A stretch of 14,566 nucleotides of DNA from Elusimicrobiota bacterium (lineage in GTDB: Bacteria > Elusimicrobiota > Elusimicrobia > JACQJN01): NCBI GenBank assembly GCA_016205085.1, contig JACQJN010000215.1, forward strand, positions 1 through 14,566. The letters run 5' to 3'. The position numbers and the translations under genes are program-made. Below, piece by piece: positions 2,163 through 14,566 of the stretch (position 1 is the first letter of the stretch; each line of letters begins with the position of its first letter). A model generated the notes under the pieces. That model had not been told where the DNA came from, searched no databases, and saw only the letters and a program-made list of their open reading frames with translations.

Positions 2163-2933
2163 CTAGGCGTAGGCGTGCAGGCCGCTCAAGAGGTAGTTGA
2201 CGCCGAAGTAGGTAAAAACCACAAATACAAATCCAGCGATCGCCAGCCACGCAAATCGCTCATTTTTCCAACCTCGAGTGCGTCTCAAATGAATGGCTAT
2301 CGCGTAGAATAACCAGGTCACCAGGGCCCATGTTTCTTTAGGATCCCAGGACCAGTACGTTCCCCAGGCCGAGTTGGCCCAGACAGCCCCGGTGATGATC
2401 CCCAATGCCAAAAACCAAAATCCCACCTGTATGGCCCGATACAGAAACTCATCCAAATGGGCTCCTCGAAATTTCCAATAAACGACCCCTCCCAGAAACC
2501 CCAGGGATAGAGCCGCGTAGCCTATCATGGTTGTGATCACATGGATGAGAAGCCAGTTGGATTGAAGCGCAGGGACCAGAGGAGCCACCCCCGAATCCAG
2601 AAAAGAGGTCACCCCTAAACTCAAAACGAGAAATAAGGAAAGCGCGGGGACCAACCCCTGAAGAGGAAATTTAGAAAAAAAATAGAACAAGACAAACAGG
2701 GTGAGCACGGTCCACAGAAGAAACATCATGGACTCATACTGATTAGAGAGAGGCGCGTGCCCGGAGGCCCGCCAAAGCAAAAGCAGGTGCAGGGATATCT
2801 CCAGCCAGCTTAAAAAAAGAGCAACGAAGACCCAGCGGTTGAAGGAGGGTTTTTTCAAAAGATAACCCGCCACATAGGTTCCCAAGGCCAATAGGGAAAA
2901 TCCAAAAGCAAATTGAAATGCAATTTGTATCAT
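2163..2933 (-). CDS. ccsA: Cytochrome c biogenesis System II heme-handling protein CcsA/ResC (WWD-domain family)
   Basis: Tryptophan-rich WWD signature WGTYWSWDPKETWALVTWLFYAIAIH with flanking conserved His residues and a C-terminal SGLHAY. The protein is polytopic. I placed the start at the internal Met (ATG 2931-2933) because it forms an ATGA overlap with the ccsB stop. The longest ORF extends to 2993 and would overlap ccsB by 64 nt. Confidence 0.8.
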   Translation of the reverse strand: MIQIAFQFAFGFSLLALGTYVAGYLLKKPSFNRWVFVALFLSWLEISLHLLLLWRASGHAPLSNQYESMMFLLWTVLTLFVLFYFFSKFPLQGLVPALSLFLVLSLGVTSFLDSGVAPLVPALQSNWLLIHVITTMIGYAALSLGFLGGVVYWKFRGAHLDEFLYRAIQVGFWFLALGIITGAVWANSAWGTYWSWDPKETWALVTWLFYAIAIHLRRTRGWKNERFAWLAIAGFVFVVFTYFGVNYLLSGLHAYA

Positions 2934-3952
2934 CGCCAAAAAGACCAAGCCAACCCCAGCATGAGAAGAATAAATCCCGTGTATATCACCCAAACACTGG
3001 GATCCTTCACTATCTGAATGCTGGAAAAATTCATATTTTTAGGGTCATACCCCGACTGGTAAAGCCGGTAGCCCTGATAACTCATGGGGGAGTTGACCGA
3101 AATGGTCTGCTTCGTTCCCGGCCCCTGGGTATCTGTGATTTCCAAATCGCTCTCAAACTGGCGGACACGCCCCGGAACGTACTCATAGACCAGACGAAAG
3201 GGCCGTCCCACATCTCCGTGAAAGTCCGGAAATCTGGAAAACACGAACTGCCGCACCGATCCATGTCCATTTTGGACGGACAGCTCCCAGGCCGGGTTCT
3301 CCCGGGCCTCGCTGCGTGATACGGGAGACTTTCCCTCCAAAGCAAACTCGGGATAAAACCGAATCGGCAACACCTTCAAATTTAGGAATTTAAACTCCGC
3401 GATTTGATTCTGAACTAACTCCGCCGATGCATGCTGCCCTGGAGAATCTCCATAAACCACATGCAAAATATGCTTCTCCTGTTCCCAGTAATGGATGCGA
3501 AACGCCTTCAGTTTTATGGAAAAGGGAAGCGAAATCTCCTCATAGCCGTCATTGATATACCCGGACCATACCTGGTCCACATTCATAGGCAAATGGCCCT
3601 TTTGCCCATAGACCCCCCGGATGATGCCCCCCGCAAACAAAAGCAGAATTGCGGCGTGGGAAATAAAAACCCCAGGTCTGACTAAAAGCGCTTTATACCG
3701 CTTTAGAGAGCAAGCCAATAGATTGATTCCGGACAAACCCAACAGCCCCAAAAACCAATAGCTTTTAAAAAGATTATTCCATCCCAAACTCAGGATGAAT
3801 GAAGCCACGGTGCGACCATACGTCTGATGGTATTCTTCCGGGGATTCCCCCTGAGGAACAATCCCCCCTAAAGCACAGGCCAGAAGCAAGCATCCTGCAC
3901 AGATGAAGAAAAATCGGATGGAGGCTAGTTGATCCAGCAGCTTTCTTGCCAT
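2930..3952 (-). CDS. ccsB: Cytochrome c biogenesis System II protein CcsB/ResB family (compact, 340 aa)
   Basis: ResB-like N-terminus (LASIRFFFICAGCLLLACALGGIVPQG) followed by TM helices with a His (FISHAAILLLFAGG). A large hydrophilic periplasmic domain and a C-terminal TM (VWVIYTGFILLMLGLAWSFW) complete the ResB layout. It lies immediately upstream of ccsA with an ATGA stop/start overlap. Confidence 0.72.
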   Translation of the reverse strand: MARKLLDQLASIRFFFICAGCLLLACALGGIVPQGESPEEYHQTYGRTVASFILSLGWNNLFKSYWFLGLLGLSGINLLACSLKRYKALLVRPGVFISHAAILLLFAGGIIRGVYGQKGHLPMNVDQVWSGYINDGYEEISLPFSIKLKAFRIHYWEQEKHILHVVYGDSPGQHASAELVQNQIAEFKFLNLKVLPIRFYPEFALEGKSPVSRSEARENPAWELSVQNGHGSVRQFVFSRFPDFHGDVGRPFRLVYEYVPGRVRQFESDLEITDTQGPGTKQTISVNSPMSYQGYRLYQSGYDPKNMNFSSIQIVKDPSVWVIYTGFILLMLGLAWSFWR

Positions 3953-3956
3953 AAAT

Positions 3957-4421
3957 CTATTTTAATGTGACCTCCTCAAACAATTTCTTCAGTTTCTGCT
4001 GCTGAATCTGGAATTCCTCTTTTTTCATGGCTTTTCTGATCTCGGAATCATAGACCAGAAACTCGATGATATGATCTTCATCCAACTTTTCCAAAGTTAT
4101 TCCACGACCTTCCATTTTAAGGTGCATCCTGTGGACGAACCGCCTCCAGGCGGATTCTTCTATGATGGGAGAATTCAATGCGCGAGCCGGGGCGTGGCAA
4201 GCACCGCAAGCCGTCAGGAAGAGCTTATAGTTTTCCTGCTGTCTTTGGGGATAGCCAGATACGTCCACCGTAGAAGCACCTAAGTCATAAAAAAACCTAG
4301 GGGCCGGACTGGCTGGGCCTTCTCTGCCAGACTCCATCGGAACCGGTGCTTTTCCATTACTAGAACATCCCTCCAGAACCCCCGCAATCATAAAAGCCGA
4401 TAGAAGATGCCGGATTTTCAT
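3957..4421 (-). CDS. Monoheme c-type cytochrome, probably a lipoprotein (ActE-like position in the CISM/ACIII-like module)
   Basis: Start placed at the internal Met (MKIRHLLSAFMIAGVLEGCSS...), which gives a signal peptide ending in a Cys (lipobox-like LEGC). There is a single CGACH heme-binding motif. The ATG at 4419-4421 overlaps the stop of the upstream NrfD-like gene as ATGA. The longer ORF to 4760 has a low-complexity N-terminus and would overlap the upstream gene by 343 nt. Confidence 0.6.
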   Translation of the reverse strand: MKIRHLLSAFMIAGVLEGCSSNGKAPVPMESGREGPASPAPRFFYDLGASTVDVSGYPQRQQENYKLFLTACGACHAPARALNSPIIEESAWRRFVHRMHLKMEGRGITLEKLDEDHIIEFLVYDSEIRKAMKKEEFQIQQQKLKKLFEEVTLK

Positions 4422-5992
4422 GATGCTGGAAAATAGGTCCGGATTCTTTCCGAAACCTCCTCCTCTGCATGCTCTTTTCCCTCCCTCACCTCCCAAATGG
4501 AAACGATGGGGAAAAGCCTCGTAAAAACTGTGTAAAGCAGGGCAAAAGCTGCCAAGCATCCTGCAAAAAGAGAAATCTCCACCCAACTCGGTGAGTAGGA
4601 GCCGACCGTGTAGGGCAGACGAGGCCGAACCAATGTGGGAACTACAATCAGAAACCTCTCCAACCACATCCCCACACACACAAAAGCGGAGGCGGCAACC
4701 GTTCCTCCCACCGTTTTTCCCAGACGCGACGCTAAAACCAGAAAGGGAAAGACAAAACAAGTCAGTGCCATGGTCCAGAAGTGAAAAGAATATCTTCCGG
4801 AAAGCTTGGAAAAGAAGATCAGCATATGGTCCGGCTCATGGCCGTACCAGACCGTAATATACTCGCAAAACGTGAAATAAAGCCACAAACAGCTCATCAC
4901 CAGCAAAAGAGTGCCCAGGTACTGGAAATGGATGGGCCTTAGATATTCTTGGAGACCGTAGGCCTTTCTCAAGACGGCCATAGCGATGATCAGGGCGGCA
5001 ATCCCGGAAAATATGGCTCCCACCACGAAATATGGACCAAATATCGTTGAATGCCACATCGGCTGGACCGTCATGCTGAACACATACGAAACCACCGTGT
5101 GCACTGAAATGGCGACGGGGATGACGACGATCGCCATGATGGCAATACACTTTTCCAAAATCCGCACCTCCTCCGGAGCGCCCGTCCAGCCCAGGGAAAG
5201 CAGTTCATAGAAATCCCTGCGCCAGCCCTGGACATGGTCCCGGAGAATAGCTATGTCCGGAATAAGGGGAATGTACAGGTAGATGCTGCTGGCCGTCAGG
5301 TAGGCGGTGATGCTGCAAACGTCCCAGAGAAGGGGGGATTCATATCTCCCATATAAGAACACATTCAACATCCGGTCGGGGCGGCCCAGATCGAGAAGAA
5401 TATTGGCCGCCCCGAAGAAAAGGACCATCACCGTAATCACCTCGGCCGAGCGGGTAATCGGCCTGCGCCACTCGGCATTGGCAATTCTTAATATGGCTGA
5501 GATCAAAGTCCCCGCATGAGAAATGCCTATGAAAAAGACAAAATTGGTGATGTAAAATCCCCAGAAGACCGGGTTGCCCAACCCAGTGACCTGAAGACCC
5601 CGAAAGACCTGTTGACTCCAGGCAAAAAGCGCCCAGAGGGAGACGGAAACCAGAATTCCCACAAACAACAGAAATCCTTTTCCAGGAGGATTGAGAATGG
5701 GCGCGATCAGAGCGGACTCCGTCTTCGAGATCGGGACAGGCTCGGTAACCCCTGCCTTTTTTTCTTTGACGGCCACGGTATAAAAAAGGAATGTGAGAAC
5801 GGCTGAAAAGAGGATAAAGAGGGGGCCCACAAGGCACCCGATGACTGCTCCGGCCATCCAGTTGTCTCCTAAATCACGAAGTTTTTGAATGCGCCACAGA
5901 AACCAGCCGTTGACCGCAAGAGTAAAAGCGTAGAAGGCCAGGAGACCGCAGACTTGAACATAAAACGCCCAACCCTTTCTTTTCATGGTCAC
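4418..5992 (-). CDS. NrfD/PsrC/ActC-family integral membrane quinone-interacting subunit (about 12 predicted TM helices)
   Basis: I count about 12 hydrophobic helices by eye: a 10-TM NrfD-like core with motifs such as HAGTLISAIL...ANAEWRRP, plus two extra N-terminal helices. The GTG at 5990-5992 overlaps the FeS-subunit stop (GTGA). An ATG two codons downstream (5984-5986) sits 10 nt after a GGGAGGGGG Shine-Dalgarno and is an equally plausible start. Confidence 0.8.
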   Translation of the reverse strand: MTMKRKGWAFYVQVCGLLAFYAFTLAVNGWFLWRIQKLRDLGDNWMAGAVIGCLVGPLFILFSAVLTFLFYTVAVKEKKAGVTEPVPISKTESALIAPILNPPGKGFLLFVGILVSVSLWALFAWSQQVFRGLQVTGLGNPVFWGFYITNFVFFIGISHAGTLISAILRIANAEWRRPITRSAEVITVMVLFFGAANILLDLGRPDRMLNVFLYGRYESPLLWDVCSITAYLTASSIYLYIPLIPDIAILRDHVQGWRRDFYELLSLGWTGAPEEVRILEKCIAIMAIVVIPVAISVHTVVSYVFSMTVQPMWHSTIFGPYFVVGAIFSGIAALIIAMAVLRKAYGLQEYLRPIHFQYLGTLLLVMSCLWLYFTFCEYITVWYGHEPDHMLIFFSKLSGRYSFHFWTMALTCFVFPFLVLASRLGKTVGGTVAASAFVCVGMWLERFLIVVPTLVRPRLPYTVGSYSPSWVEISLFAGCLAAFALLYTVFTRLFPIVSIWEVREGKEHAEEEVSERIRTYFPAS

Positions 5993-6696
5993 ACCCCCTC
6001 CCTTAGATAGGTGACCTTGGGCTCGGTGCCCAATTCCTCCAAAAGGTGAAACGCGCGAGGGTCTTTGCAGAGCCTTGAGACGTCACTTTCGGAATCGTTC
6101 AGATCGCCGAACACAATCGCCTTGGCAGGGCAAACCTCCGCGCATGCCGGCTGGTAATCCCCCTCCTGTAGGTTCCGCCCCTGCGCCACAGCTTCTTCCT
6201 TGGCGCGTTGAAGGCGGTGATGGCAGAAAAGGCATTTTTCAACGACCCCATTCGGCCTTACCGAAACGCTGGGATTGAACGAAGATCGCATTTCATCGGG
6301 CCAGAGTGGCTTCTTCCAGTTGAAGAATTTGCAGGTGTAGGGACAGGCATTCAAGCAATACCGGCATCCGATGCATCGCGAGTACACCTGACCCACAATA
6401 CCCTCCTCGTTTTTGAAGGTGGCATAGACGGGACAGACCTTGATACAGGGAGGATTTTCACACTGCTGGCAAGGCATGGGGATCAAGTTCTGACGCACAT
6501 GCGAACCCTCCACCTCCGTTTTGGGAAGAATCTTCAACCAACGGATGACCCTGCCCATCGCAGCTTCCTCAGGGCTCCCCAGCATCTGGTTGTTCTCGAC
6601 CGAGCAGGCCACCACGCAAGCACCGCACCCCGTGCATTTGTCGAGATCCACAACCATTCCCCAGCGGTGCTGCCCCTTTCTGCGACTCTCTTCCAT
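5989..6696 (-). CDS. Four-cluster 4Fe-4S ferredoxin-type electron-transfer subunit (PsrB/NrfC/HybA/ActB2-like)
   Basis: N-terminus WGMVVDLDKCTGCGACVVAC. Four Cys clusters are present: CxxCxxCxxxC, CQQCENPPCIKVCP, CIGCRYCLNACP and CLFCHH...CAEVCP. It has no signal peptide of its own, consistent with TAT hitch-hiking on the adjacent MopB subunit. It starts 4 nt after the MopB stop. Confidence 0.85.
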   Translation of the reverse strand: MEESRRKGQHRWGMVVDLDKCTGCGACVVACSVENNQMLGSPEEAAMGRVIRWLKILPKTEVEGSHVRQNLIPMPCQQCENPPCIKVCPVYATFKNEEGIVGQVYSRCIGCRYCLNACPYTCKFFNWKKPLWPDEMRSSFNPSVSVRPNGVVEKCLFCHHRLQRAKEEAVAQGRNLQEGDYQPACAEVCPAKAIVFGDLNDSESDVSRLCKDPRAFHLLEELGTEPKVTYLREGV

Positions 6697-6700
6697 GGCG

Positions 6701-8710
6701 TTATGCTTTCATGAGACGACACCTGCCGCCGCGAAATTGCGGATCGACCCCGTCTCCCTCGGCGATCTCCAAGGGGTTGGCTCCCAATCCCTTGGCCCAT
6801 CTCCCATAAGCCGTGTGCCCCAACCCCACCGGAACACTCACCACATCCGGCATGGTCCAGGGTACGAGGCGCGCCTTGACCTGAATTTTTCCTCTCCTGG
6901 ACTCCACCCATACCCTGTCTCCATCGACGATGCCGTATTTTCGGGCGGTGTCAGGATGAATTTCCGCCCATGTTCCCCACGTTTCCTGAGCCTGCGGTCC
7001 CGCGACGCTTTGGAGATAGGGAAGATGGGCTCCCTCTCCGCGGAAAAAAGCAAGGGGGGTGAAGAGATATAGGAAAAGCGGAAATTCCGCGTCCCCTTTC
7101 AGCTCCGGCACCCGATGTTTAAGAGCATCCACCAAGGGGCTGAATCTAAATCGTTCCAACATCTTCCCGCTCTTCGGGATCTCCATCCACCGGACTTCCC
7201 CCTCCGGTTCCAGAAGACTCTCACCCTTGAGCTCTTTCGCCCTGATCTTATGATAGGATTGGAATTCACCCAGGGCCGGAGCCGCTCCTTCAACAACTCG
7301 TTTTAATAGAAGGAAAATTTCTCCAGGATCCTTCGTGTCGTAGAGAGGCTCCACGGCCCGTGGGCTGGCATTTAAAACGGATTTTCCATCTATTGTGGAA
7401 TGCTGGGACAGGTGGAGCTGCTCTAAAGGCGTATGGCAAGGAAGTACAATGTCCGAAATCTCGGCTGTCTCGGTCATGTGGGGCGAAACAGTGACGATGA
7501 ACGGCACATTTTCCAGTACGGACTTCCACTGGCCCGACCCAAAAAAAACGGGATTTACACGATCCACAATCATCACTTGAGGCGCCGCTTTCCTGAACCG
7601 CTCCGCGCTCTCCTCCCGTTTCTCCAAGCCGCCCACCGTCCAAACCGTTTCTTCGCTTCCCATGCTGCCCAGAATCATATTCAGGGCGGAAACCGCCATT
7701 CGGTTGAAAATAAAATCAGACCCCATAATGGCTGCGGCCGGTTTCAAATGAATAAATTTCAGAAGGAGAAGCTTGATCTCTTTCTCCGGAATTTGAGTCC
7801 ATCGGGACACCCGTTCCAGAGACAACATTTCCACAGCTCTTTTAAATTCCTCGAACCCATCCGTATGGCCTTGGATATAAGCCTTGCCGTAACTTCCGTT
7901 CACAATGAGCTCCCGCGCCAGCCACAAAGCCAGTACTCCTTCCGTCCCGGGCCGGATGGGCATCCACTCATCCGCCTTGGCGGCCGTCACGGAAAACCGC
8001 GGCTCGATCTGAACGACGTGGGTTCGTTGCCTGCCGGGCCACCGCCGAAGTTTGGCAAAAGCCCTCTGAGCCTCCACGGGTGAAGGATGAGTCTGGAGCC
8101 AATCGAATCCAAAAGAAACAAGAAGTCGGATCCGGTCCAAATCCCAAAATGTCCGCGGGCTAGACTCCAAGGTCACAAAATTCCCCTCACCCACTGAACC
8201 GGCCAGCCCCTTTAAAGCTTCCTGATGCACGTCCTTGGGTTCTCCGGGAGTCAGGAGCGCCAAAGGCCGTTTCACTTTTTCTAGATTTGCCTTGGATATC
8301 CTTCCCGCGATCCGGCGCACAGCTTCCTCCCAAGAGATCGCAGTCCACCTCCCCGCGCCCCGAGGACCTTCGCGCACCAGCGGGCCACGAAGACGGTCCG
8401 GATGGTACAACTCCTGAAGGACGGCGGCTCCTTTAGGACAAAGGCTTCCTTGATTGATAGGATGATCCTGAGTCCCTGAAATTCCCACCGCGCGGCCATC
8501 CATCTTGCGTACGCGGATGCCGCAGCCGGCCGGACACATGCCGCATATCCCCTGAACGAATGTCTCCTTGCCTGGTTGAGGCAATGGTGTCTCTCTGGGC
8601 TTAAGGACAGTTTCCCTGGCCCAGGAAGGCAGCACAGAGCCCGCTCCCAATAGGCCGGCCAACTTCAGAAAGGCTCGTCTCGATATCTCCATATTACAGG
8701 TGGCACGCAA
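6701..8710 (-). CDS. TAT-exported molybdopterin-oxidoreductase (Mo-bisPGD/MopB) family catalytic-type subunit, PsrA/PhsA/ActB1/QrcB-like (669 aa)
   Basis: Twin-arginine signal (MEISRRAFLKLAGLLGAGSVLPSWA). A canonical FS0 [4Fe-4S] motif CGMCPAGCG-x27-CPKG (CX2CX3CX27C) is present. The MopB core signature VVQIEPRFSVTAAKADEWMPIRPGTEGVLALWLAREL is also present. The alternative start MEISRR... at 8692 would leave a 1-nt gap to the upstream gene instead of a 17-nt overlap. Confidence 0.8.
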   Translation of the reverse strand: MRATCNMEISRRAFLKLAGLLGAGSVLPSWARETVLKPRETPLPQPGKETFVQGICGMCPAGCGIRVRKMDGRAVGISGTQDHPINQGSLCPKGAAVLQELYHPDRLRGPLVREGPRGAGRWTAISWEEAVRRIAGRISKANLEKVKRPLALLTPGEPKDVHQEALKGLAGSVGEGNFVTLESSPRTFWDLDRIRLLVSFGFDWLQTHPSPVEAQRAFAKLRRWPGRQRTHVVQIEPRFSVTAAKADEWMPIRPGTEGVLALWLARELIVNGSYGKAYIQGHTDGFEEFKRAVEMLSLERVSRWTQIPEKEIKLLLLKFIHLKPAAAIMGSDFIFNRMAVSALNMILGSMGSEETVWTVGGLEKREESAERFRKAAPQVMIVDRVNPVFFGSGQWKSVLENVPFIVTVSPHMTETAEISDIVLPCHTPLEQLHLSQHSTIDGKSVLNASPRAVEPLYDTKDPGEIFLLLKRVVEGAAPALGEFQSYHKIRAKELKGESLLEPEGEVRWMEIPKSGKMLERFRFSPLVDALKHRVPELKGDAEFPLFLYLFTPLAFFRGEGAHLPYLQSVAGPQAQETWGTWAEIHPDTARKYGIVDGDRVWVESRRGKIQVKARLVPWTMPDVVSVPVGLGHTAYGRWAKGLGANPLEIAEGDGVDPQFRGGRCRLMKA

Positions 8711-9194
8711 GACAATCGTTTGTGACTTTCCTTCTCCTATGACAATCCATACAACGCTCCATCTTGATGGGAATCACCTGACGGGTGACGGGAACCTCCC
8801 TTTTGGACATATCCCCGTGGCATACGGCGCAATCGAGCTTGGCGATACCCACATGGCGCCTATGGGAAAAGTAGACGTGCTGCGGAACACGGTAAATCTG
8901 GTTCCAAGGTATCTCTCTATTTTCCAGGATGTAGGCCTGGACGACTTTTAATTTGGGATTGTCCGTATCCTGGTTGTGGCAGGAAGCGCAGGTTTCCAAG
9001 GGCGGGAGAGTCGCATGAACACCTCCCTCCGCAATACCGGCATGACAATTGGCGCACTCCAGGCCCAGTTCGATGTGTTTTTTATGGTTATACGGGACGG
9101 GCTGCTTCTTGGAGTCTGACTGGTGCCAGGCCAAAAGGAACCAGACTGAACCAAGCAAAACAAGGGATAAAACGGCTGCCGCAAGATCTTTCAT
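8694..9194 (-). CDS. Membrane-anchored pentaheme c-type cytochrome (ActA/QrcA-like electron entry/exit subunit)
   Basis: N-terminal hydrophobic signal-anchor (AAAVLSLVLLGSVWFLLAW). Five CxxCH motifs (CANCH, CASCH, CAVCH, CMDCH, CLACH) lie within 166 aa. GGGGAGGAG sits immediately upstream of the ATG. Confidence 0.75.
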   Translation of the reverse strand: MKDLAAAVLSLVLLGSVWFLLAWHQSDSKKQPVPYNHKKHIELGLECANCHAGIAEGGVHATLPPLETCASCHNQDTDNPKLKVVQAYILENREIPWNQIYRVPQHVYFSHRRHVGIAKLDCAVCHGDMSKREVPVTRQVIPIKMERCMDCHRRRKVTNDCLACHL

Positions 9195-9215: not shown

Positions 9216-10097
9216 TTACTTCTGCGGGGTTTTGGGCGGCGCACCCGCAAATTCCTTTGCCAAGGCTGTGACGCCGGACATCGCTCCCAAACCCATGGTC
9301 TCCACGGCGCTGGAGGGAACGATCACGATGGTGGAATTTTGCCGCATTCCTTCCAGTAGAATATTCATCGCACGCAAATGCAGAGCAATGGGACTATTCA
9401 CGTAGGCCTTAGAAGATTCTTCGAACACCTGTGAAACCTGCCGTTCTGAATCTGCCAGGATCACCCTTGCCTGACGCTCCCTCTCCGCCTGCGCCTGCAT
9501 GGACATGGCATTCTGAAGGCCGGCCGGTATTTTCACGTCGCGGATCTCCACAGAAATGGCTTTAATGCCCCAGGCTTCCGTCCGTTGATCAATCATAGCG
9601 CAAAGATCCTTATCGATCTTCTCCCGGCCTCTGAGCATTTCCGAGAGATCGGTTCTTCCGATCACATCCCGCAGAGCGGTTTGACTGGACCATGTAATAG
9701 CCTGCCGGTAATCCTCCACTTCCACAGCTGCCTTCTTCGAATCCACGACCCGCCAGAAGAGAACCGCATCCACATCCACAGGCACGCTGTCTTTGGTGAG
9801 GGTCTGCTCCGCAGTGAAGGGAGTCGTTATCGTACGCAGATCTATCCAATAAGGGATGGTGTCCACGAAAGGAATGACGCCAAAAACTCCTGGACCCTTC
9901 AAATCAAGATATTTTCCAAGCCGAAGAATCACCGCTTTTTGCCATTGGCGTGCAACGCGGATGGCCAGAACGAATAAGACAGCCAAGGCTGAGACTGCAA
10001 CTCCAAGGGCTGGATTCTCAAGCTTGACGCCCAAGAAGCCTCCTGCGGTCATCATCACGACAAACACCACCGCTGTCACAGGATGAATTCCCATCAT
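9216..10097 (-). CDS. SPFH/band-7 (stomatin/prohibitin-like, slipin) membrane scaffold protein
   Basis: N-terminal TM helix followed by a PHB-domain-like sequence (AVILRLGKYLDLKGPGVFGVIPFVDTIPYWIDLRTITTPF...AVLFWRVVD...). A coiled-coil-like AQAERERQARVILADSERQ segment follows. A GGAGG RBS lies 4-7 nt upstream of the ATG. Confidence 0.85.
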   Translation of the reverse strand: MMGIHPVTAVVFVVMMTAGGFLGVKLENPALGVAVSALAVLFVLAIRVARQWQKAVILRLGKYLDLKGPGVFGVIPFVDTIPYWIDLRTITTPFTAEQTLTKDSVPVDVDAVLFWRVVDSKKAAVEVEDYRQAITWSSQTALRDVIGRTDLSEMLRGREKIDKDLCAMIDQRTEAWGIKAISVEIRDVKIPAGLQNAMSMQAQAERERQARVILADSERQVSQVFEESSKAYVNSPIALHLRAMNILLEGMRQNSTIVIVPSSAVETMGLGAMSGVTALAKEFAGAPPKTPQK

Positions 10098-10197: not shown

Positions 10198-11433
10198 TTA
10201 TTTTTTCACGGCTAGAGACAATATATAGGCCGTCAACGCGTGAATCTCATCGTCCCGAAGCTCCAGTTTGGGCATTGTGGAACCCGGGCTTACCATTTGA
10301 GGATCTCGGAAATGTTTAGTAAGCCACTCCTCCGCTTTCTCGCCGGCCACCTTATCCAAAGCGGGTCCAACCGCACCCCCCTTTCCATTGATCTTATGAC
10401 AATAGCCACAATTTAAGTTGCGGTACAATCTCCGACCCGTAAAAACTACCGGGTTCTTTTCAGCGACAGAAGTCAAGGGCGAACCAGTGTATTTCTGAGC
10501 GGTGATGTAGCGGGCGATATCCTCTATCTGCGTGTCGGTCAACTGGCCTTTATACCCCGGCATCGTAGAGGACGAGTTGAGTTGGGAAGGATCCAGAATA
10601 TATTTTTTGATGTAGGCTTTGTCGCGGGCCGAACCGATGAGGGAAAGATCAGGCCCCACATCCCCACCTTCCCCACCTATACGGTGACAAGCCGTACAGT
10701 TAGCCGCAAAAAGCTTAGGTGCCTCGCCGGTGAAGGGTCCTCCCGCCAAAGACTTCATGTAGGCCGCCAGGGCTTGAATCTCATCTTCCAAAAGATTAAG
10801 TTTAGGCATATCCGACCCCGGGCGGGGGTCTCTAAGATGGCCGATGAGCCACTCCTCCGTTTCCTCACCCACAACCTTATCGAGTTCAGGGCCGATGGAG
10901 CCGCCCTTTCCCGCAATCTTGTGACAGTAAGCGCAATTCAAACTCCTATACAGCCTGTGCCCCGCCAGGACCAGAGGGTCCTTCTCAATGACAGGATTGG
11001 TGAGAGGGCTCTTGTAGCCCGCCCAGGTGAGATAGGTGATGCCGGCCAGAGCCAAAACTCCCAAACCGGTCCAGAGAGGCCGGTCCAAAGGATGGCGCCT
11101 GGAATCTTTATCCAAAAAGGGCAAAAGAAGCAGAAAAGAGACGGCCAACCCCGGAAGTAGGATGGCCGCGACGGCTTCCAGATGGCCGGGAAAGAACTTG
11201 AGCGCCTGAAAAAGAAACAAAAAGTACCACTCCGGACGGGGATTATAGGTCGTATCCGTGGGATCGGCCAATTCCTCAAGTTTCACCCCAAACTTGTATG
11301 CCAGGAATGAAAGAGCGCACAGGATAAGAAAAGTAACCAACGTGTCCTTGAAGACCGCATAGGGGAAAAATGGTTTGCCCTCCTCCTTCAAACGAATGTA
11401 GCGCTTCTTATATTCCTCGTACCAATTTTGCAT
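10198..11433 (-). CDS. qcrC: bc-complex subunit IV (PetD-like, 3 TM, PEWYFLFLFQ motif) fused to three tandem class-I cytochrome c domains (QcrC-like triheme variant)
   Basis: PEWYF motif and three TM helices are followed by three CxxCH domains (CAYCHKIAGKGGSIGP, CTACHRIGGEGGDVGP, CGYCHKINGKGGAVGP). Start chosen at the internal Met (MQNWYEEY...; ATG 11431-11433), 2 nt after the cytochrome b6 stop. The longer ORF to 11679 would overlap cytochrome b by 244 nt. Confidence 0.75.
   Translation of the reverse strand: MQNWYEEYKKRYIRLKEEGKPFFPYAVFKDTLVTFLILCALSFLAYKFGVKLEELADPTDTTYNPRPEWYFLFLFQALKFFPGHLEAVAAILLPGLAVSFLLLLPFLDKDSRRHPLDRPLWTGLGVLALAGITYLTWAGYKSPLTNPVIEKDPLVLAGHRLYRSLNCAYCHKIAGKGGSIGPELDKVVGEETEEWLIGHLRDPRPGSDMPKLNLLEDEIQALAAYMKSLAGGPFTGEAPKLFAANCTACHRIGGEGGDVGPDLSLIGSARDKAYIKKYILDPSQLNSSSTMPGYKGQLTDTQIEDIARYITAQKYTGSPLTSVAEKNPVVFTGRRLYRNLNCGYCHKINGKGGAVGPALDKVAGEKAEEWLTKHFRDPQMVSPGSTMPKLELRDDEIHALTAYILSLAVKK
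10207..10974 (-). repeat. Intragenic duplication: cytochrome c domain 1 (about 10744-10974) and domain 3 (about 10207-10449) of the subunit-IV-triheme fusion are close paralogous copies
   Basis: The protein segments align at about 60% identity by eye (GHRLYRSLNCAYCHKIAGKGGSIGPELDKV.../GRRLYRNLNCGYCHKINGKGGAVGPALDKV...). Shared DNA strings are visible, including tgaatctcatc, agccactcctccg and ccaccttatc. The middle domain is more divergent. Confidence 0.5.
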
Positions 11434-11435
11434 TT

Positions 11436-12104
11436 CTAACGCTTTTTTTGAGGAACCTCTGAAATCCCATGCCATACCACAAGAAAAAGATGCGCTCCTA
11501 TCAAAAGACCGATCACCATTGGCAAAACTAAAACGTGCAGCGCATAAAACCGGGTCAGAGTAGCCGCTCCCATATCCTCCCCACCTATAAGGATCTTGGA
11601 AATATAAGCCCCCAAAATCGGTGTTTGGCCCGCGATGTTGGCCCCCACCATGGTGGCCCAGTAAGCCTTCTGATCCCAAGGCAATAGATACCCTGTAAAA
11701 CTAAATCCCATCACCAATAAAAATAAAAAGACCCCGACGATCCATGTGGCTTCACGTGGATACTTATACGCCCCCATAAAGTACACCCTCAGCATATGCA
11801 GGGATACCAATACCACCATGAACGTGGCTCCCCAGTGATGCAATCCGCGAATCAGCCACCCCAATAGAACTTGCTCGCTGATGAACCGCACGGAATCATA
11901 GGCATGATCCGGGGAAGGAACATAGTTCATGGCCAAGAGCGCTCCCGTCACCGCCTGAACCATAAATACGAAAAGGGACGCGCTCCCCAATGTATAAAAC
12001 CAGGCAACAGGACCCTTGGCTTCGGGAATGTGCCGGGCAAAGAGAGCCTGCCACACCTTCTGGAATCCGGTCCTCTCATCCAGCCAAGCAAGAATGTTCT
12101 TCAT
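11436..12104 (-). CDS. qcrB: Cytochrome b6-type (split cytochrome b, N-terminal 4-helix heme-b-binding half)
   Basis: Strong cytochrome b6 signatures: GWLIRGLHHWGA, LPWDQKAYWA, TLTRFYALH and C-terminal WHGISEVP. Start placed at the internal Met MKNILAWLDERTGF (ATG 12102-12104), which forms an ATGA overlap with the Rieske stop. Confidence 0.85.
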   Translation of the reverse strand: MKNILAWLDERTGFQKVWQALFARHIPEAKGPVAWFYTLGSASLFVFMVQAVTGALLAMNYVPSPDHAYDSVRFISEQVLLGWLIRGLHHWGATFMVVLVSLHMLRVYFMGAYKYPREATWIVGVFLFLLVMGFSFTGYLLPWDQKAYWATMVGANIAGQTPILGAYISKILIGGEDMGAATLTRFYALHVLVLPMVIGLLIGAHLFLVVWHGISEVPQKKR

Positions 12105-12607
12105 GCTTTCTCCTGATGCACGGGCTGAGGTAAAATCAAAAGCTGCCCTCCCACCACTTTTACCAGAAAGCGGTCCAAAGGCCTGGGTGGCGGGCCACTC
12201 ACCACCTTCCCATCCACATCGAAGACGGCGGTATGACAGGGACAAAGAAACTGCTTCTTCTGTTCATCCCAGCGGTAAGGGCAGCCTAGGTGGGTGCAAC
12301 GAGGATCGAAGACGATAAAATCCTTCCCGTTAGAGGTGAGAATCCAGGCCGAGGACCTGCGCTCCGTTGTCACCCAGGCATCCCGTTTGCGCTCCACAAA
12401 CTCCACTTTTATGGGAAGCCCCGGCTTAAAATTGTCGGCCCGCCCGATATCCAACCAGCCTTCCTCCTTTTTCTTGAAAGCCGGAGATATGAAATAACCC
12501 AGGCCGGCACCCCCCAGAATGGCGCCGATGAGGCCGCCCAGTCCGAATATGGCCCACTGCAGAAAAGAACGCCTGGAAATCGTGCTGTCAGGGCTGGGGT
12601 GTTCCAT
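12101..12607 (-). CDS. qcrA: Rieske [2Fe-2S] iron-sulfur protein with TAT signal
   Basis: TAT motif SRRSFLQ plus a TM anchor. Rieske box I CTHLGC and box II CPCH are separated by about 15 residues. Confidence 0.85.
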   Translation of the reverse strand: MEHPSPDSTISRRSFLQWAIFGLGGLIGAILGGAGLGYFISPAFKKKEEGWLDIGRADNFKPGLPIKVEFVERKRDAWVTTERRSSAWILTSNGKDFIVFDPRCTHLGCPYRWDEQKKQFLCPCHTAVFDVDGKVVSGPPPRPLDRFLVKVVGGQLLILPQPVHQEKA

Positions 12608-13346
12608 GCTTTTGCAGTTCCTTAATTTGAAGCTCGTTGAGGATATCGACAGAACGCCGGGTGACTTCTTGAGCCGCCTTCAGCACCTCCATCATTTTGA
12701 ATGTGTGCCAATCCTCCAGGGTGTGCCGGTACATTCCCATGATTTTCTGATAATCCTGTCCCTGCCGTGAAATATCCGCTTTCTGTCCATGACTTTCCTG
12801 AAGAGTTTTTTCCAATCTCTTGAAAGTCTCTCCGGCATTGTTGAGCGCCATGAGCGTGGCGTAAGCCTGGGTGGGACGCCTATGGCAGACCGTACAGGTC
12901 ATCTCCAATTCTCTAGGGGCCAGGACATGATTGGCCATGGAGCCGTGACAGGTGACACAGTTGGGACCCCTTCCCGAACTCTGCAGATCCCTATAATGAG
13001 CGCTTCTCTTAAACGCCTTAAACTCCGCCTGATGGCAAGTCCCACAGGTTGCAGGAATACGCGTGTAGTATACGAGACTCTTGGAATTTGTCGAAGGCAT
13101 CATGCCTTTATGCGCCGCTCTCTTTTCTCCTTCGGAAGGATTCCCTCCGTGGCAGGTCTCACACCGAATCCCCGCCCTGGCATGGACTGATTTCTCCCAA
13201 TCTGAAAAGTTGTGTTCAAGATAGGAAACCCCTCCCACGCCTCTGTGACAAGCGACGCAAGAATTTTCCTGCTGAGTCTCGCCCCTCAGGAGAGAACATG
13301 ATAGCACTAAAAATAAAATACCGGCAACAGGATTAAAAAAATTCAT
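12588..13346 (-). CDS. Periplasmic pentaheme c-type cytochrome
   Basis: Start at MNFFNPVAGILFLVLSCSLLRG (signal peptide), preceded by GGAGG at 9-nt spacing. Five CxxCH motifs are present (CVACH, CETCH, CGTCH, CVTCH, CTVCH). The C-terminal region is helical and Lys/Glu-rich. Confidence 0.75.
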   Translation of the reverse strand: MNFFNPVAGILFLVLSCSLLRGETQQENSCVACHRGVGGVSYLEHNFSDWEKSVHARAGIRCETCHGGNPSEGEKRAAHKGMMPSTNSKSLVYYTRIPATCGTCHQAEFKAFKRSAHYRDLQSSGRGPNCVTCHGSMANHVLAPRELEMTCTVCHRRPTQAYATLMALNNAGETFKRLEKTLQESHGQKADISRQGQDYQKIMGMYRHTLEDWHTFKMMEVLKAAQEVTRRSVDILNELQIKELQKHGTPQP

Positions 13347-13365
13347 TTTAAAACCTCCTGCCACC

Positions 13366-14566
13366 CTAAGGATGGCATCCCGCACAAACAGATTGCACCT
13401 GCTTACGAAGAGGCACTTTCTTGTGCGCTCCTATCTCGTGGCATTTCACGCACCCCATCATCTCCATATGAGCCCTGTGCGGCATCGTCTTTCCGGACAT
13501 TGGACCCAGCTCCGGACTGGAAGTCTCCACAGTTTCGGGAGGGACCTGAACGCCAATTTTAGAATGGCACAGGGTGGCGCAAAAACCTCCCGACAAAAGG
13601 GGCAGAGAGGAGAGGTCTTGAGTCTGTGCTTGAATCCTCTCTCCTATCTCCGAAAGAATTTCATCCTCCCGGCGCAAAGCCAGAGAAGCCAGATAGATAT
13701 TGTGCTCCCCCCGGGAAGCGTGGACGAAGTGATGCCAGTGCTCCGCCCGGGCCGCCTTCTTTTCGATCTCCCGGCGCTCCTGTCCCGCCAAATGGGACGC
13801 CGCTATCGCGGAGCGGATCTGATCGAGTTTTCGTTCCAGCTGAGCCAAACCTTCTTCCAGCTCCGATTTTGTCTCCTGCCAGATTCCTTCAAATTTTGAA
13901 CCGTGGCACTTGACACAGGCCTGGGTGGAGGCTCTGTACGTTTTGCCTCGAAACTCTTCCTCCTGAACATCCTTTTTCTCGCTGTAGTGACACCCCACGC
14001 AATCCACTTGGGCCAGATACATGGGACTGGGCATCTCCGGAAGCCCCAGCGCAGAAACTTTGCCCGAATACATCTCCAACTGGCCCGTGTGCTTGTTCTG
14101 ATGGCAGTAGGAACAATCAAATGTAAGAGTAGGAGACCGGCCCGACACCCCAACAGTAGAGAGCGCAAGAAGAGGCTCTCCCAATCGGACAATGCGAGAA
14201 TCATCCTGTGATTCAAAACCATGGCGGATCTCTTGATGGCAGCGGAAACAGGCCACGTGATGCTTGGTCACGTGATTCTCATGCAAAAATGGAATATCTC
14301 CATACCGCTTAAGTTTTTCCGGCTGATTGTGGCAGGTGAAGCACCGGTCCTCGGGAGCCTTCCCTTCCCCACGAACCACATCCAGATGGCAGTTTTGACA
14401 CGCCAGCCCCTGCTTGACCACAAAATCTTTGTGATTGTAAGTCATGTTGGCAATCTGAAATGATTTTTGAGGAATGTCATGACATCCCAGACAGCCTCCA
14501 ATGGGCCGGAGTTCTCTGCCGGCTCCCTTTCCCTTAAAATGGCACAGGTAGCAGGTGTCGTAAGCC
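13366..14566 (-). CDS. Large multiheme c-type cytochrome, 5' end truncated by the window edge (at least 10 CxxCH motifs plus one CxxxCH in window)
   Basis: The reading frame stays open upstream of the listed Met all the way to the window end. My hand translation of the rc of 14446-14566 gives ...CYLCHFKGKGAGRELRPIGGCLGCHDIPQKSFQIANMTYNHKD. This is low-confidence: its first CxxCH (CYLCH) is placed after re-cutting the trailing nucleotides of the window. From the Met the track protein carries CQNCH, CFTCH, CFRCH, CSYCH, CVGCH, CVKCH, CATLCH (CX3CH), CVKCH and CAGCH. A central coiled-coil and His-rich segment (HWHHFVHASRGEH) is present. Confidence 0.7.
   Translation of the reverse strand, partial: AYDTCYLCHFKGKGAGRELRPIGGCLGCHDIPQKSFQIANMTYNHKDFVVKQGLACQNCHLDVVRGEGKAPEDRCFTCHNQPEKLKRYGDIPFLHENHVTKHHVACFRCHQEIRHGFESQDDSRIVRLGEPLLALSTVGVSGRSPTLTFDCSYCHQNKHTGQLEMYSGKVSALGLPEMPSPMYLAQVDCVGCHYSEKKDVQEEEFRGKTYRASTQACVKCHGSKFEGIWQETKSELEEGLAQLERKLDQIRSAIAASHLAGQERREIEKKAARAEHWHHFVHASRGEHNIYLASLALRREDEILSEIGERIQAQTQDLSSLPLLSGGFCATLCHSKIGVQVPPETVETSSPELGPMSGKTMPHRAHMEMMGCVKCHEIGAHKKVPLRKQVQSVCAGCHP

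Follow-up and report, generated by a model that had tools for sequence, protein, structure and literature searches.

A groundwater Elusimicrobia genome encodes a complete split respiratory Rieske/cytochrome b6/subunit IV complex directly downstream of two multihaem cytochrome c genes, and we give about even chances to the reading that this region specifies, in the cytoplasmic membrane, the hub of a network of multihaem proteins that exchange electrons. The pairing of a trihaem subunit IV with two uncharacterised multihaem cytochromes is a rare variant of a known cluster. Similar clusters have already been noted in Zixibacteria RBG-1 and in Geobacter (ExtMNOPQS), and the kind is biochemically uncharacterised.

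Organization of the locus

The window analysed is the entire 14,566-bp contig of the metagenome-assembled genome (HY400_05690, 'partial'). Open reading frame calls and translations place five genes, g1 to g5, on the minus strand of 10198-14566, where a first-pass annotation had counted six. These genes, the domains of g5 and the downstream neighbours are:

14566..13366, minus strand: g1, large multihaem cytochrome c, 3' 399 codons
12588..13346, minus strand: g2, pentahaem cytochrome c, 252 aa, 5 CXXCH
12101..12607, minus strand: g3, Rieske [2Fe-2S] protein, 168 aa; PF00355, E=5e-11
11436..12104, minus strand: g4, four-helix cytochrome b6, 222 aa; PF00033, E=6e-50
11433..10198, minus strand: g5, subunit IV with three class-I cytochrome c domains, 411 aa; PF00032, PF00034
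10999..11433, minus strand: N-terminal part of g5, subunit IV; PF00032 at aa 56-143
10468..10998, minus strand: g5 D1+D2, dihaem class-I c module; CAYCH/MPK and CTACH/TMPG
10201..10467, minus strand: g5 D3, extra C-terminal class-I c domain; CGYCH/TMPK
9216..10097, minus strand: g6, SPFH/band-7 membrane scaffold protein; PF01145, E=2e-35
3957..9194, minus strand: g7-g11, Qrc/alternative-complex-III-like quinone module; Pfam matches, NCBIfam below cut-off

The g1/g2 gap of 19 nt and the g2/g3 overlap of 20 nt are as originally described; g3 and g4 share an ATGA overlap, and g4 and g5 are separated by 2 nt. CXXCH motifs number 10, 5 and 3 in g1, g2 and g5, against means of 0.08, 0.02 and 0.003 in composition-preserving shuffles, and the remaining four reading frames of the region contain no haem motifs. 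Within its at least 399 residues, g1 also has one CX3CH motif (CATLCH), bringing it to 11 haem motifs; the claim that two multihaem cytochromes precede the Rieske gene thus holds, with 5 motifs in g2 and 11 in the 5'-truncated g1. Because the contig ends inside g1, this gene lacks approximately 170 N-terminal residues and nothing further upstream is readable.

The Rieske/b6/subunit IV trio

By their sequences, g3, g4 and g5 constitute a complete split Rieske/b6/subunit IV quinol:cytochrome c oxidoreductase without haem ci. All four histidines that ligate the b haems are present, as are the Qo motif PEWY and a Rieske protein with a TAT export signal. The g3 protein has a twin-arginine signal (RRSFL), the cluster motifs CTHLGC...CPCH and a box II of the 'AF' type (CPCHTAVF), and scores below cut-off on the NCBIfam b6f and bc1 Rieske models. 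In g4, the histidine pairs are Hx13H in helix B (aa 89-103) and, in helix D (aa 190-205), Hx14H, where 14 intervening residues are typical of b6; the protein scores 240 bits on the NCBIfam cytochrome b6 model and 233 bits on ExtP. The haem-ci cysteine of the CxGG motif is absent from g4, which reads YTLGS at this position, while relatives have TLGS or VFGS. TLGS has been reported from the short cytochromes b of Rubrobacter and Conexibacter (PMC5600118).

The Qo motif lies at aa 67-70 of g5 and is PEWY or PDWY in the relatives listed. A 19-residue hydropathy scan finds two helices in the subunit IV part, with a third read by eye, and this part matches cytochrome b C-terminal halves in the PDB at E=2e-11. 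Three PF00034 stretches follow in the same reading frame as PF00032, with CXXCH at aa 167, 246 and 342, each accompanied by a Met-Pro ligand motif. Both the split b6 with a subunit IV-cytochrome c fusion in QcrABC-like order and the three appended class-I domains, as first proposed, are therefore borne out. D1+D2 reach 76 bits on the NCBIfam actinobacterial QcrC model (cut-off 200) and E~1e-5 against solved QcrC chains. Cytochrome b is split between separate reading frames (g4 and g5) in the window, as in b6f and Bacillus 'green-clade' complexes, and re-fused in family members L006 and L081. Alignment with six dihaem orthologues identifies D3 as a diverged copy of D1 (56/86 residues identical). 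This duplication is rare in the family and shared with one other Elusimicrobia contig (L169/L170).

The trio is part of a dihaem family with a wide distribution, most of whose members occur by themselves. Of 80 genome relatives of the trio, 75 are dihaem, and most of the 80 (Bryobacterales/Solibacter) show no gene for a multihaem protein within 6 kb; two c domains are the family norm in the length distribution of the best 120 matches. Some 70 acidobacterial genomes, among them that of the cultured Paludibaculum fermentans, have the dihaem trio without such company. In the closest relative, L169, whose subunit IV is likewise trihaem, no pentahaem gene separates g1 from the Rieske gene. A g2 homologue does lie directly upstream of the Rieske gene in five of six contexts (the window, L006, L081, L166 and L168), and 2.4 kb upstream of it in L167; the g2 homologues of these contexts are 36-59% identical. 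The first-pass annotation took the multihaem proteins for likely subunits or dedicated partners, a view to be abandoned if their genes were missing from orthologous operons and varied independently. They are missing beside most orthologous trios, and g2 from the corresponding place in L169, which goes part of the way to refuting this view.

These distributions bear on a rival explanation, which we consider unlikely: that the trio is an ordinary complex III. As the organism's menaquinol:cytochrome c reductase, it would supply a terminal oxidase, or reductases of nitrogen oxides, via its c4/CcoP-like c domains, and the multihaem genes would be mere neighbours within an island of respiratory genes. 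The solitary acidobacterial trios and the missing g2 of L169 fit this explanation, as do the c domains of g5, which score on CcoO/CcoP/c4/c6 and actinobacterial QcrC models. The same island also carries a Qrc/alternative-complex-III-like complex and cytochrome c maturation genes. Oxygen- or nitrogen-compound respiratory chains have been reported in groundwater Elusimicrobia (bioRxiv 10.1101/765248), which agrees with it as well. Against it stand the 20-nt overlap of g2 with the Rieske gene and the recurrence of their order in five loci despite a g2 identity of only 36-59%. Mere adjacency also sits poorly with a cytochrome b6 homologue at 81% of g1-family loci, when by our rough estimate only about 1% of random 20-kb stretches would have one.

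The pentahaem cytochrome

The g2 protein is hydrophobic in a segment near its N-terminus and folds into a bundle of three helices at its C-terminus. Besides its five CXXCH motifs, it retains five further invariant histidines and Met137, giving each haem a conserved candidate for the sixth ligand. By hhalign, the haem domain matches the N-terminal, NapC/NirT-like part of the g1 family (probability 95.5%, E=1.4e-8), and on the ExtM model g2 scores 33 bits over the first 88 of 599 positions (cut-off 800). The translational coupling of g2 to the Rieske gene suggests a direct association of the two proteins. None of its 270 homologues has an informative name, most being unnamed and the NCBI records reading 'hypothetical protein'. 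Some JGI records of g2 homologues carry an automatic nitrite-reductase label.

The multihaem genes contain no CXXCK catalytic-haem signature. NrfA gives no Pfam match at the curated cut-off, and no HAO family appears among the matches listed. Foldseek against the PDB returns nothing significant (best E 1.7; NrfA E=1.9), and the AlphaFold2 models are too poor or too novel for classification.

The large cytochrome

The family of g1, assessed from 240 homologues, comprises proteins of about 550-610 residues (typically ~570) with approximately 15 haem motifs. Its N-terminus consists of a transmembrane helix and a tetrahaem, NrfH-like NapC/NirT domain (PF03264). Where homologues are full-length, the helix and this domain, with CXXCHXM at haem 1, show a conservation of 90% or more; the window copy is truncated before this part. 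The aligned family motif is FCNSCHIM, and NrfH carries FCTSCHIM at the matching position. The family scores 67.8 bits on the NCBIfam NrfH model (cut-off 134), has no ExtM match in NCBIfam and matches NrfH (2j7a_C) and OcwA (6i5b_A) in the PDB. The first-pass annotation asked for the large cytochrome to be classified against families such as HAO, NrfA, MtrA and OmcS; on these homologue, NCBIfam and PDB comparisons it belongs to none of these four types and is probably an NrfH-like, membrane-anchored fusion. As such a fusion, g1 would be at least as likely to act as a parallel gate to the quinone pool as to be a subunit of the bc complex. For Elusimicrobia, Zhong & Shi 2018 list two CbcL homologues and none of ImcH or CymA.

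We regard as very improbable a periplasmic oxyanion or nitrogen-oxide reductase chain, in which the multihaem proteins are, or feed, a soluble-substrate reductase. Its models are the selenite/tellurite link proposed for Geobacter Ext and the bc complexes of anammox bacteria, whose octahaem subunits are catalytic. The 233 bits of g4 on ExtP and 64 bits of g5 on ExtS, which NCBIfam assigns to a 'selenite/tellurite reduction operon', would fit such a chain, as would the resemblance of part of the g1 family to OcwA, a relative of NrfA-type enzymes, and the nitrite reductase subunit labels on some JGI g2 homologues. However, the Ext equivalog cut-offs are missed, neither CXXCK nor another catalytic-haem signature is present, and every g2 haem has its sixth-ligand candidate; the NrfA and HAO searches described above also argue against it.

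Genomic neighbourhood

Of 27 metagenome loci that extend 5 kb or more to either side of the g1-family gene, 22 (81%) carry a cytochrome b6 homologue. Among 35 g1-family metagenome loci of at least 12 kb, a CbcL-like gene is found near g1 in 30, and MtrB is within reach in only 2. Many contigs carry both g1- and g2-family members.

Genes for an MtrB_PioB beta-barrel and a decahaem MtrA-like cytochrome occur in relatives L002, L006, L007, L163, L164 and L166-L168. In L166 and L168, they head a single-strand string with short gaps: MtrA-like, MtrB_PioB, monohaem c, g2, Rieske, b6, dihaem subunit IV fusion (subunit IV-cc), monohaem c and CbcL-like. L167 has the same genes in looser order, and in L163, L164 and L006 g1 is accompanied by genes of the MtrAB-like and CbcL-like kinds. 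L166-L168 show no extracellular cytochrome resembling MtrC.

Downstream in the window, g6 is syntenic and 69-84% identical in L003, L169 and L170, and its place beside the trio is conserved in Elusimicrobia. Genes g7-g11, syntenic in L169, encode a pentahaem cytochrome c, a TAT molybdopterin-like protein, a 4Fe-4S protein, an NrfD-type membrane subunit and a 155-aa monohaem protein; their NCBIfam matches are to QrcA/B/C and DsrP/QrcD, all below cut-off. By tblastn, the window has no MtrB, MtrA or CbcL homologues, the contig ending inside g1, and the contig has no oxidase or carbon-fixation genes. The proposal of a periplasmic haem wire for extracellular transfer accordingly draws indirect support from relatives, whose clusters lie beside MtrA/MtrB_PioB and CbcL-like genes, and finds none of these partners in the window.

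Proposed mechanism

In the hub reading, the trio would oxidise menaquinol by a Q cycle, this substrate being suggested by the low-potential 'AF' Rieske box. Electrons would pass from the three periplasmic His/Met haems of the trio to g2, which, given its coupling to the Rieske gene and five putatively six-coordinate haems, would be a wire rather than a catalyst. The membrane-anchored, approximately 15-haem g1 may provide a second, non-Q-cycle gate through an NrfH-type quinol site, linking the quinone pool to the same periplasmic haem network as the trio. As synteny in relatives suggests, this network may extend to cytochromes of the CbcL-like kind and, in the lineages nearest to this one, to an MtrAB/MtoAB-type outer-membrane conduit. 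Flow could run either way, from quinol to the outside or from extracellular Fe(II) or an electrode to quinone with the bc complex reversed. Outward flow is our default for the sole reason that complexes of this type normally catalyse in that direction; since the potentials of bis-His multihaem cytochromes usually lie below those of the Rieske/class-I c chain, outward transfer would be uphill.

A better fit to typical haem potentials would be offered by an electron-uptake redox loop, which we nevertheless doubt. Here menaquinone would be reduced by g1, by the Qrc-like complex and, in relatives, by CbcL-like proteins, with electrons from donors of low potential in the periplasm or outside the cell, for instance Fe(II) by way of an MtoAB-like conduit. 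Either the Rieske/b6 complex would drain the pool to high-potential class-I cytochromes and an oxidase, or it would run reversed; its connection to the multihaem proteins would be only via the quinone pool or small cytochromes. The MtrA, MtrB, monohaem c and NapC-like g2 series of L166-L168 mirrors mtoA-mtoB-mtoD-cymA of Sideroxydans ES-1, and the lack of an MtrC-like extracellular cytochrome there is consistent with uptake. For the Mtr-PetAB genes of RBG-1, Castelle et al. 2013 preferred a role in Fe(II) oxidation (PMC3903129), a preference that favours the loop, and g7-g9 score best on the QrcA/B/C models, a complex named 'menaquinone reductase' in NCBIfam. However, the Qrc and NrfH scores all fall below equivalog cut-offs, and metal reducers use the same families (CymA, CbcL and Geobacter Ext). 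The contig lacks oxidase and carbon-fixation genes, and the g2/Rieske coupling suggests direct association.

The boldest form of the hub reading, a rather remote prospect in our estimation, joins g1, g2 and the Rieske/b6/trihaem complex into one membrane supercomplex with approximately 23 c-type haems per protomer, in which one haem wire to an outer-membrane MtrAB-type conduit would serve both the Q-cycle complex and a quinol site of the NrfH type. If true, extracellular electron transfer would have an inner-membrane gate that is reversible and coupled to the proton-motive force, distinct from the CymA, ImcH, CbcL and bc1/ACIII models, in uncultured phyla (Elusimicrobia, Zixibacteria-like lineages, 'Deltaproteobacteria' MAGs and Omnitrophota).

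Comparison with known systems

Bacillus subtilis QcrABC comprises a Rieske protein of the low-potential, menaquinol type, a four-helix b6 with the haem-ci CxGG motif and a subunit IV with one c haem. The window shares its gene order, the c domain on the C-terminus of subunit IV and the low-potential menaquinol-type Rieske protein, and differs in having three c domains instead of one, TLGS in place of the haem-ci cysteine and upstream-coupled multihaem genes. The D1+D2 dihaem class-I module resembles that of actinobacterial QcrCAB (bc-aa3 supercomplex), whereas its fusion to subunit IV, the split cytochrome b and the third domain do not. Like NrfH and CymA, the g1 family has a transmembrane helix, PF03264 and, in the form FCNSCHIM, the CXXCHXM motif; unlike them, it extends to ~570 aa with approximately 11 more haems, and the window copy lacks the NrfH-like part.

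Anammox Rieske/cytochrome b complexes have multihaem subunits, and genes for multihaem cytochromes are part of the Rieske/cyt b operon (PMC12954380), as here. In contrast to these complexes, the locus has no HAO-like octahaem protein and no NAD(P)-oxidoreductase subunit, and its b6 belongs to a subfamily without CxGG.

[quoted passage not shown] The window likewise has two multihaem genes followed by Rieske, b6 and subunit IV, yet stays below the equivalog cut-offs (ExtP, 233 < 290; ExtS, 64 < 100). ExtQ and ExtS are separate genes in Geobacter, where the window has the fused g5, and ExtM and ExtN are 12- and 10-haem proteins.

Sideroxydans lithotrophicus ES-1 has the order mtoA-mtoB-mtoD-cymA (PMC4412085). 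L166-L168 similarly have a decahaem cytochrome, porin and monohaem c, then NapC/NirT-like g2, although their string includes a bc complex, and g2 differs from CymA in being pentahaem, with a helical C-terminal bundle and without CXXCHXM.

The Mtr-PetAB cluster of Zixibacteria RBG-1 contains MtrA/MtrB homologues, two monohaem and several multihaem cytochromes, and cytochrome b/Rieske (PMC3903129). The window differs in lacking MtrAB, and its trihaem subunit IV and NrfH-like 15-haem protein are not described there; compared by description only, the composition of the RBG-1 cluster matches that of L166-L168.

Gene organization of the cytochrome cluster

All long ORFs of the window lie on the minus strand. 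The region 10198-14566 contains five genes, one fewer than the six counted in the first-pass annotation.

Genes of the region 10198-14566, in gene order

14566..13366, minus strand: g1, large multihaem cytochrome, open to the window end; 399 residues with ten CXXCH motifs and one CX3CH
13346..12588, minus strand: g2, pentahaem cytochrome c; 252 aa with five CXXCH motifs
12607..12101, minus strand: g3, Rieske protein; twin-arginine signal, CTHLGC...CPCH, Pfam Rieske 5e-11
12104..11436, minus strand: g4, four-helix cytochrome b6; 222 aa, Pfam Cytochrome_B 6e-50
11433..10198, minus strand: g5, subunit IV followed by three class-I c domains; 411 aa, Cytochrom_B_C 4e-10 and three Cytochrom_C stretches

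From g1 to g5, successive genes are 19 nt apart, overlap by 20 nt, overlap at an ATGA and are 2 nt apart; the first two junctions are exactly as originally described. ORFs, Pfam matches and motifs confirm the proposed Rieske/b6 complex with three class-I c domains on subunit IV, as well as the pentahaem cytochrome and the large cytochrome with at least ten motifs upstream of it. The 10, 5 and 3 haem motifs observed are far above chance (shuffle means 0.08, 0.02 and 0.003), and no haem motif occurs in the other reading frames of the region. Because the window spans the entire contig, some 170 N-terminal residues of g1 are missing and the DNA upstream of it is not readable; an NCBI protein from an Elusimicrobia MAG, labelled as partial, is identical in sequence to the g1 fragment. 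An exact-sequence search of the contig index with g2 and g3 returned no other copy, and an Rfam scan of the window found no RNA family. Scans for promoters and terminators yielded about as many candidates as expected from shuffled sequence and no terminator between genes, so the operon limits are not defined by these scans.

An SPFH/band-7 (stomatin/flotillin-like) gene at 9216-10097 lies directly downstream of the bc trio (g3-g5). Its position is kept in the related loci L003, L169 and L170 (69-84% identity), and its product may be a membrane-scaffold partner of the bc complex. A second quinone-reactive complex is encoded at 3957-9194, comprising a pentahaem cytochrome c, a TAT molybdopterin-like subunit in which an N-terminal Fe4S4 motif is still present, a 4Fe-4S subunit, a 524-aa NrfD subunit that has two additional helices at its N-terminus, and a monohaem protein of 155 aa that matches no family. 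Its best NCBIfam matches, QrcA/B/C and DsrP, are all below cut-off; the complex is syntenic in L169, and in L009 and L073 it is found close to bc trios. The cluster further includes, at 2163-3952, the System II genes for cytochrome c maturation, ResB/CcsB and CcsA; L164 has them as well, and tblastn matches both more weakly in L087 and L134.

The bc core and the subunit IV-c fusion

Together, g3-g5 constitute a complete, Q-cycle-competent Rieske/b6 complex with periplasmic His/Met haems on subunit IV. The histidine spacing of g4 is b6-type (Hx13H in helix B, Hx14H in helix D), and the Qo motif of g5 is PEWY. Two helices of g5 are predicted by a hydropathy scan and a third was read by eye; with three helices, the c domains would be periplasmic. 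Box II of the Rieske protein reads CPCHTAVF ('AF' type). A correlation cited by Baymann et al. (PMC3509893), in which the 'AF' type itself is absent, assigns low potentials to Rieske types that lack these two hydroxyls, of Ser and of Tyr, and a menaquinol-type potential would be expected for g3.

The haem-ci cysteine is missing from g4, which has YTLGS at the CxGG position of b6f and Bacillus. This TLGS site falls at about residues 44-48 of the split b6 (gene 11436-12104); acidobacterial orthologues have VFGS, and the TLGS replacement is also found in short cytochromes b of Rubrobacter and Conexibacter (Dibrova et al., PMC5600118). In L006 and L081, the b6, subunit IV and c domains of the same family are re-fused into one ORF of 536-537 aa. 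A split b6 without haem ci, along with independent re-fusions, makes this family relevant to the split-versus-fused cytochrome b debate. Directly downstream of the fused gene, L006 (10933-12282) encodes a protein of 449 aa that combines two class-I c domains with an ethylbenzene-dehydrogenase-like (EB_dh) haem-b domain.

A genome scan recovered more than 539 relatives of g5, and the Rieske-b6-subunit IV/c trio is kept at every such locus with enough flank. These loci span Elusimicrobia, 'Deltaproteobacteria' MAGs, Chloroflexota, Lindowbacteria and dozens of Bryobacterales/Solibacter, and include cultured Paludibaculum fermentans. The fusion is dihaem and ~320-345 aa long in 75 of 80 genome loci. 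The third c domain is rare and lineage-specific, extending what is a dihaem family. When g5 is aligned with six orthologues, this domain, D3 (g5 residues 323-411; 10201-10467), proves to be a C-terminal addition, and it is a diverged duplicate of the first domain, D1 (56 of 86 residues identical). An assembly artefact was rejected as its origin, given the protein identity to D1 of only 65% and the presence of D3 in L169 and L170. Among the best 120 hits from 5.8 billion proteins searched, only P0242 (412 aa, 74% identical to g5, from another Elusimicrobia contig, L169) matches the g5 architecture. Two longer relatives of 491 and 499 aa indicate that family members differ in how many c domains subunit IV carries; nearly all remaining hits are ~318 aa, and two are longer by a fused-on b6.

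The multihaem cytochromes g1 and g2

Database relatives of g1 number 240 and are mostly 550-610 aa long. Full-length members have one N-terminal TM helix and a NapC/NirT domain (PF03264), and carry 13 CXXCH motifs, one CX3CH and one CX4CH in total. The sequence FCNSCHIM, at least 90% conserved among them, presumably corresponds to the CXXCHXM haem-1 motif of NrfH. The family scores 67.8 bits against the NCBIfam NrfH model, below the cut-off of 134, and in a PDB search it matches NrfH (2j7a_C) over residues 31-88 and 6i5b_A over residues 241-483. We take the latter to be the OcwA structure, in line with the citation of 6I5B by the paper characterising OcwA of Thermincola. Based on the TM helix, the NapC/NirT domain and the NrfH matches, g1 is a predicted NrfH-like, membrane-anchored module of the quinol-dehydrogenase type with about eleven extra haems. 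It belongs to none of the HAO, NrfA, MtrA and OmcS families against which its classification had been proposed, and a catalytic NrfA/HAO-like role for it was rejected.

The g2 family comprises 270 relatives of ~250 aa, none of which bears an informative name: most are unnamed, NCBI records read 'hypothetical protein', and some JGI entries are automatically labelled 'formate-dependent nitrite reductase'. Five CXXCH motifs, five more histidines and one methionine are invariant, so every g2 haem can be six-coordinate, a pattern that fits a wire rather than an enzyme. In an hhalign comparison (probability 95.5%, E=1.4e-8), the haem region of g2 matches the NapC/NirT-like N-terminal part of g1 family members but lacks the Met of CXXCHXM. 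In an AlphaFold2 model of g2 (mean pLDDT 77), the C-terminal three-helix bundle is confident and the haem-binding part moderate; Foldseek found nothing significant for it in the PDB (best E=1.7; NrfA E=1.9). This result and the invariant histidines for all haems led to the rejection of a catalytic NrfA/HAO-like role for g2.

Linkage of the multihaem genes to bc complexes

The multihaem proteins had been proposed as subunits or dedicated partners of the bc complex, a reading that finds support from the cytochrome side but, for the most part, not from the bc side. A cytochrome b6 homologue is present in 45 of 80 metagenome loci recovered with the g1 family and in 22 of the 27 that have at least 5 kb on both sides, usually 2-5 kb from the g1 homologue and on the same strand. 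CbcL-like genes, in which a multihaem c is joined to a membrane domain of the dihaem b type, occur in 30 of 35 g1-family loci of at least 12 kb. Homologues of g2 (36-59% identical) lie directly upstream of the Rieske gene in L006, L081, L166 and L168, and 2.4 kb upstream of it in L167. Most bc trios, however, lack a multihaem neighbour: no haem-motif ORF was found within 6 kb of the Bryobacterales/Solibacter trios, and in the Elusimicrobia loci L002 and L004 the Rieske gene is preceded by a monohaem ORF in place of a multihaem one. In the closest relative, L169, g1, Rieske, b6, subunit IV-c3, SPFH and Qrc-like genes follow one another as in the window, but g2 is absent between g1 and Rieske, and only a 31%-identical paralogue lies further downstream. 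Absence from orthologous bc operons, named beforehand as evidence against partnership, is seen for most trios but not in the lineages that retain g2.

Two electron-transfer multihaem families are therefore genomically tied to Rieske/b6 complexes. The bc trio needs neither g1 nor g2, whereas the g1 and g2 families rarely occur without a Rieske/cytochrome b module. This pattern, which is genomic linkage and not proof of subunit status, is consistent with an accessory module that can be added to bc complexes.

Further modules occur up- or downstream of Elusimicrobia g1 homologues (L169, 1-5471; L082 and L164, 11700-14250), comprising a small multihaem c, a 4Fe-4S protein and NrfD, plus a cytochrome b561-type gene. 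With these, four or five different quinone-reactive modules are possible per locus.

Possible relation to extracellular electron transfer

Related loci L166 and L168 encode, on one strand with short gaps, an MtrA-like decahaem cytochrome, an MtrB_PioB porin, a monohaem c, g2, Rieske, b6, subunit IV-cc, a monohaem c and a CbcL-like protein. All parts of this arrangement recur in L167, in a looser order and with a NapC/NirT multihaem gene in addition, and L163, whose g1 is 61% identical, has in succession MtrA-like, MtrB_PioB, CbcL-like, g1 and g2-like genes. Elusimicrobia L164 and 'Deltaproteobacteria' L006 also combine these genes (MtrB_PioB E=1e-98 in L006). The first-pass suggestion of an extracellular electron-transfer wire is thus supported by the loci of relatives but not by the window, which has no MtrA-like, MtrB_PioB or CbcL-like gene. 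Because of this, and because MtrB is within reach in only 2 of 35 long g1-family loci, the outer-membrane conduit link, which holds for close relatives, is one we infer for the window's organism. Judging from relatives, a CbcL-like gene is predicted upstream of g1, perhaps together with an MHC-FeS-NrfD module and MtrAB.

A gene for the ferrous-iron transporter FeoB (window 54-2027) recurs beside cytochrome clusters: a copy in L166 (10558-12138) is 57% identical, both FeoA and FeoB occur in L165 (5421-7528), and further hits come from L106 and L111. This recurrence suggests a possible iron connection.

The observation itself is confirmed, and its original interpretation is partly supported. In the proposed mechanism, menaquinol would be the substrate of the Rieske/b6 complex, g2 would dock onto the c domains of g5, g1 may form a second gate to the quinone pool, and the haem network would extend to an outer-membrane conduit. 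Outward electron flow is the usual catalytic direction. Electron uptake or a redox loop is about as likely, considering the Mto-like gene order in relatives, the sub-threshold best matches of g7-g9 in the second quinone-reactive complex to QrcA/B/C ('menaquinone reductase' in NCBIfam), and the usually low potentials of bis-His haems.

The inner-membrane step is the least understood part of extracellular electron transfer beyond Shewanella and Geobacter, and whether energy is conserved there is unclear. CymA-type dehydrogenases are neither an energy-conserving nor a reversible gate; a Q-cycle complex genetically joined to multihaem cytochromes, with a porin-cytochrome conduit added in relatives, would be one or the other. 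The g1 and g2 families, with 240 and 270 relatives that are mostly unnamed or 'hypothetical' and in some cases carry generic cytochrome labels, provide concrete and widespread candidates for testing. To our knowledge, only fermentation or the respiration of oxygen and nitrogen compounds has so far been ascribed to groundwater Elusimicrobia, a metabolic range that would be extended if the link holds.

Comparison with known systems

A survey of groundwater Elusimicrobia (bioRxiv 10.1101/765248) makes no mention of multihaem cytochromes, iron or Rieske proteins, and the top-ranked literature on Elusimicrobia and Mtr/Mto or porin-cytochrome systems does not describe this cluster. A precedent exists in Zixibacteria RBG-1, whose Mtr cluster includes a cytochrome b/Rieske complex, two monohaem cytochromes and several multihaem cytochromes, and for which Castelle et al. 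2013 preferred Fe(II) oxidation (PMC3903129). The order of MtrA, MtrB, monohaem and NapC-like genes in relatives mirrors mtoA-mtoB-mtoD-cymA of Sideroxydans ES-1 (PMC4412085). Geobacter ExtMNOPQS encodes, in order, a 12-haem and a 10-haem cytochrome, Rieske, b6-like and subunit-IV-like proteins and a cytochrome c lipoprotein, and adjoins outer-membrane genes (PMC5877670). Against the ExtP model, g4 scores 233 bits, just below the cut-off, and equivalog membership in Ext was rejected, as was an anammox-type complex. The cluster type, never characterised biochemically, has already been noted in genomes, and the window carries a rare trihaem variant of it with an NrfH-like 15-haem neighbour.
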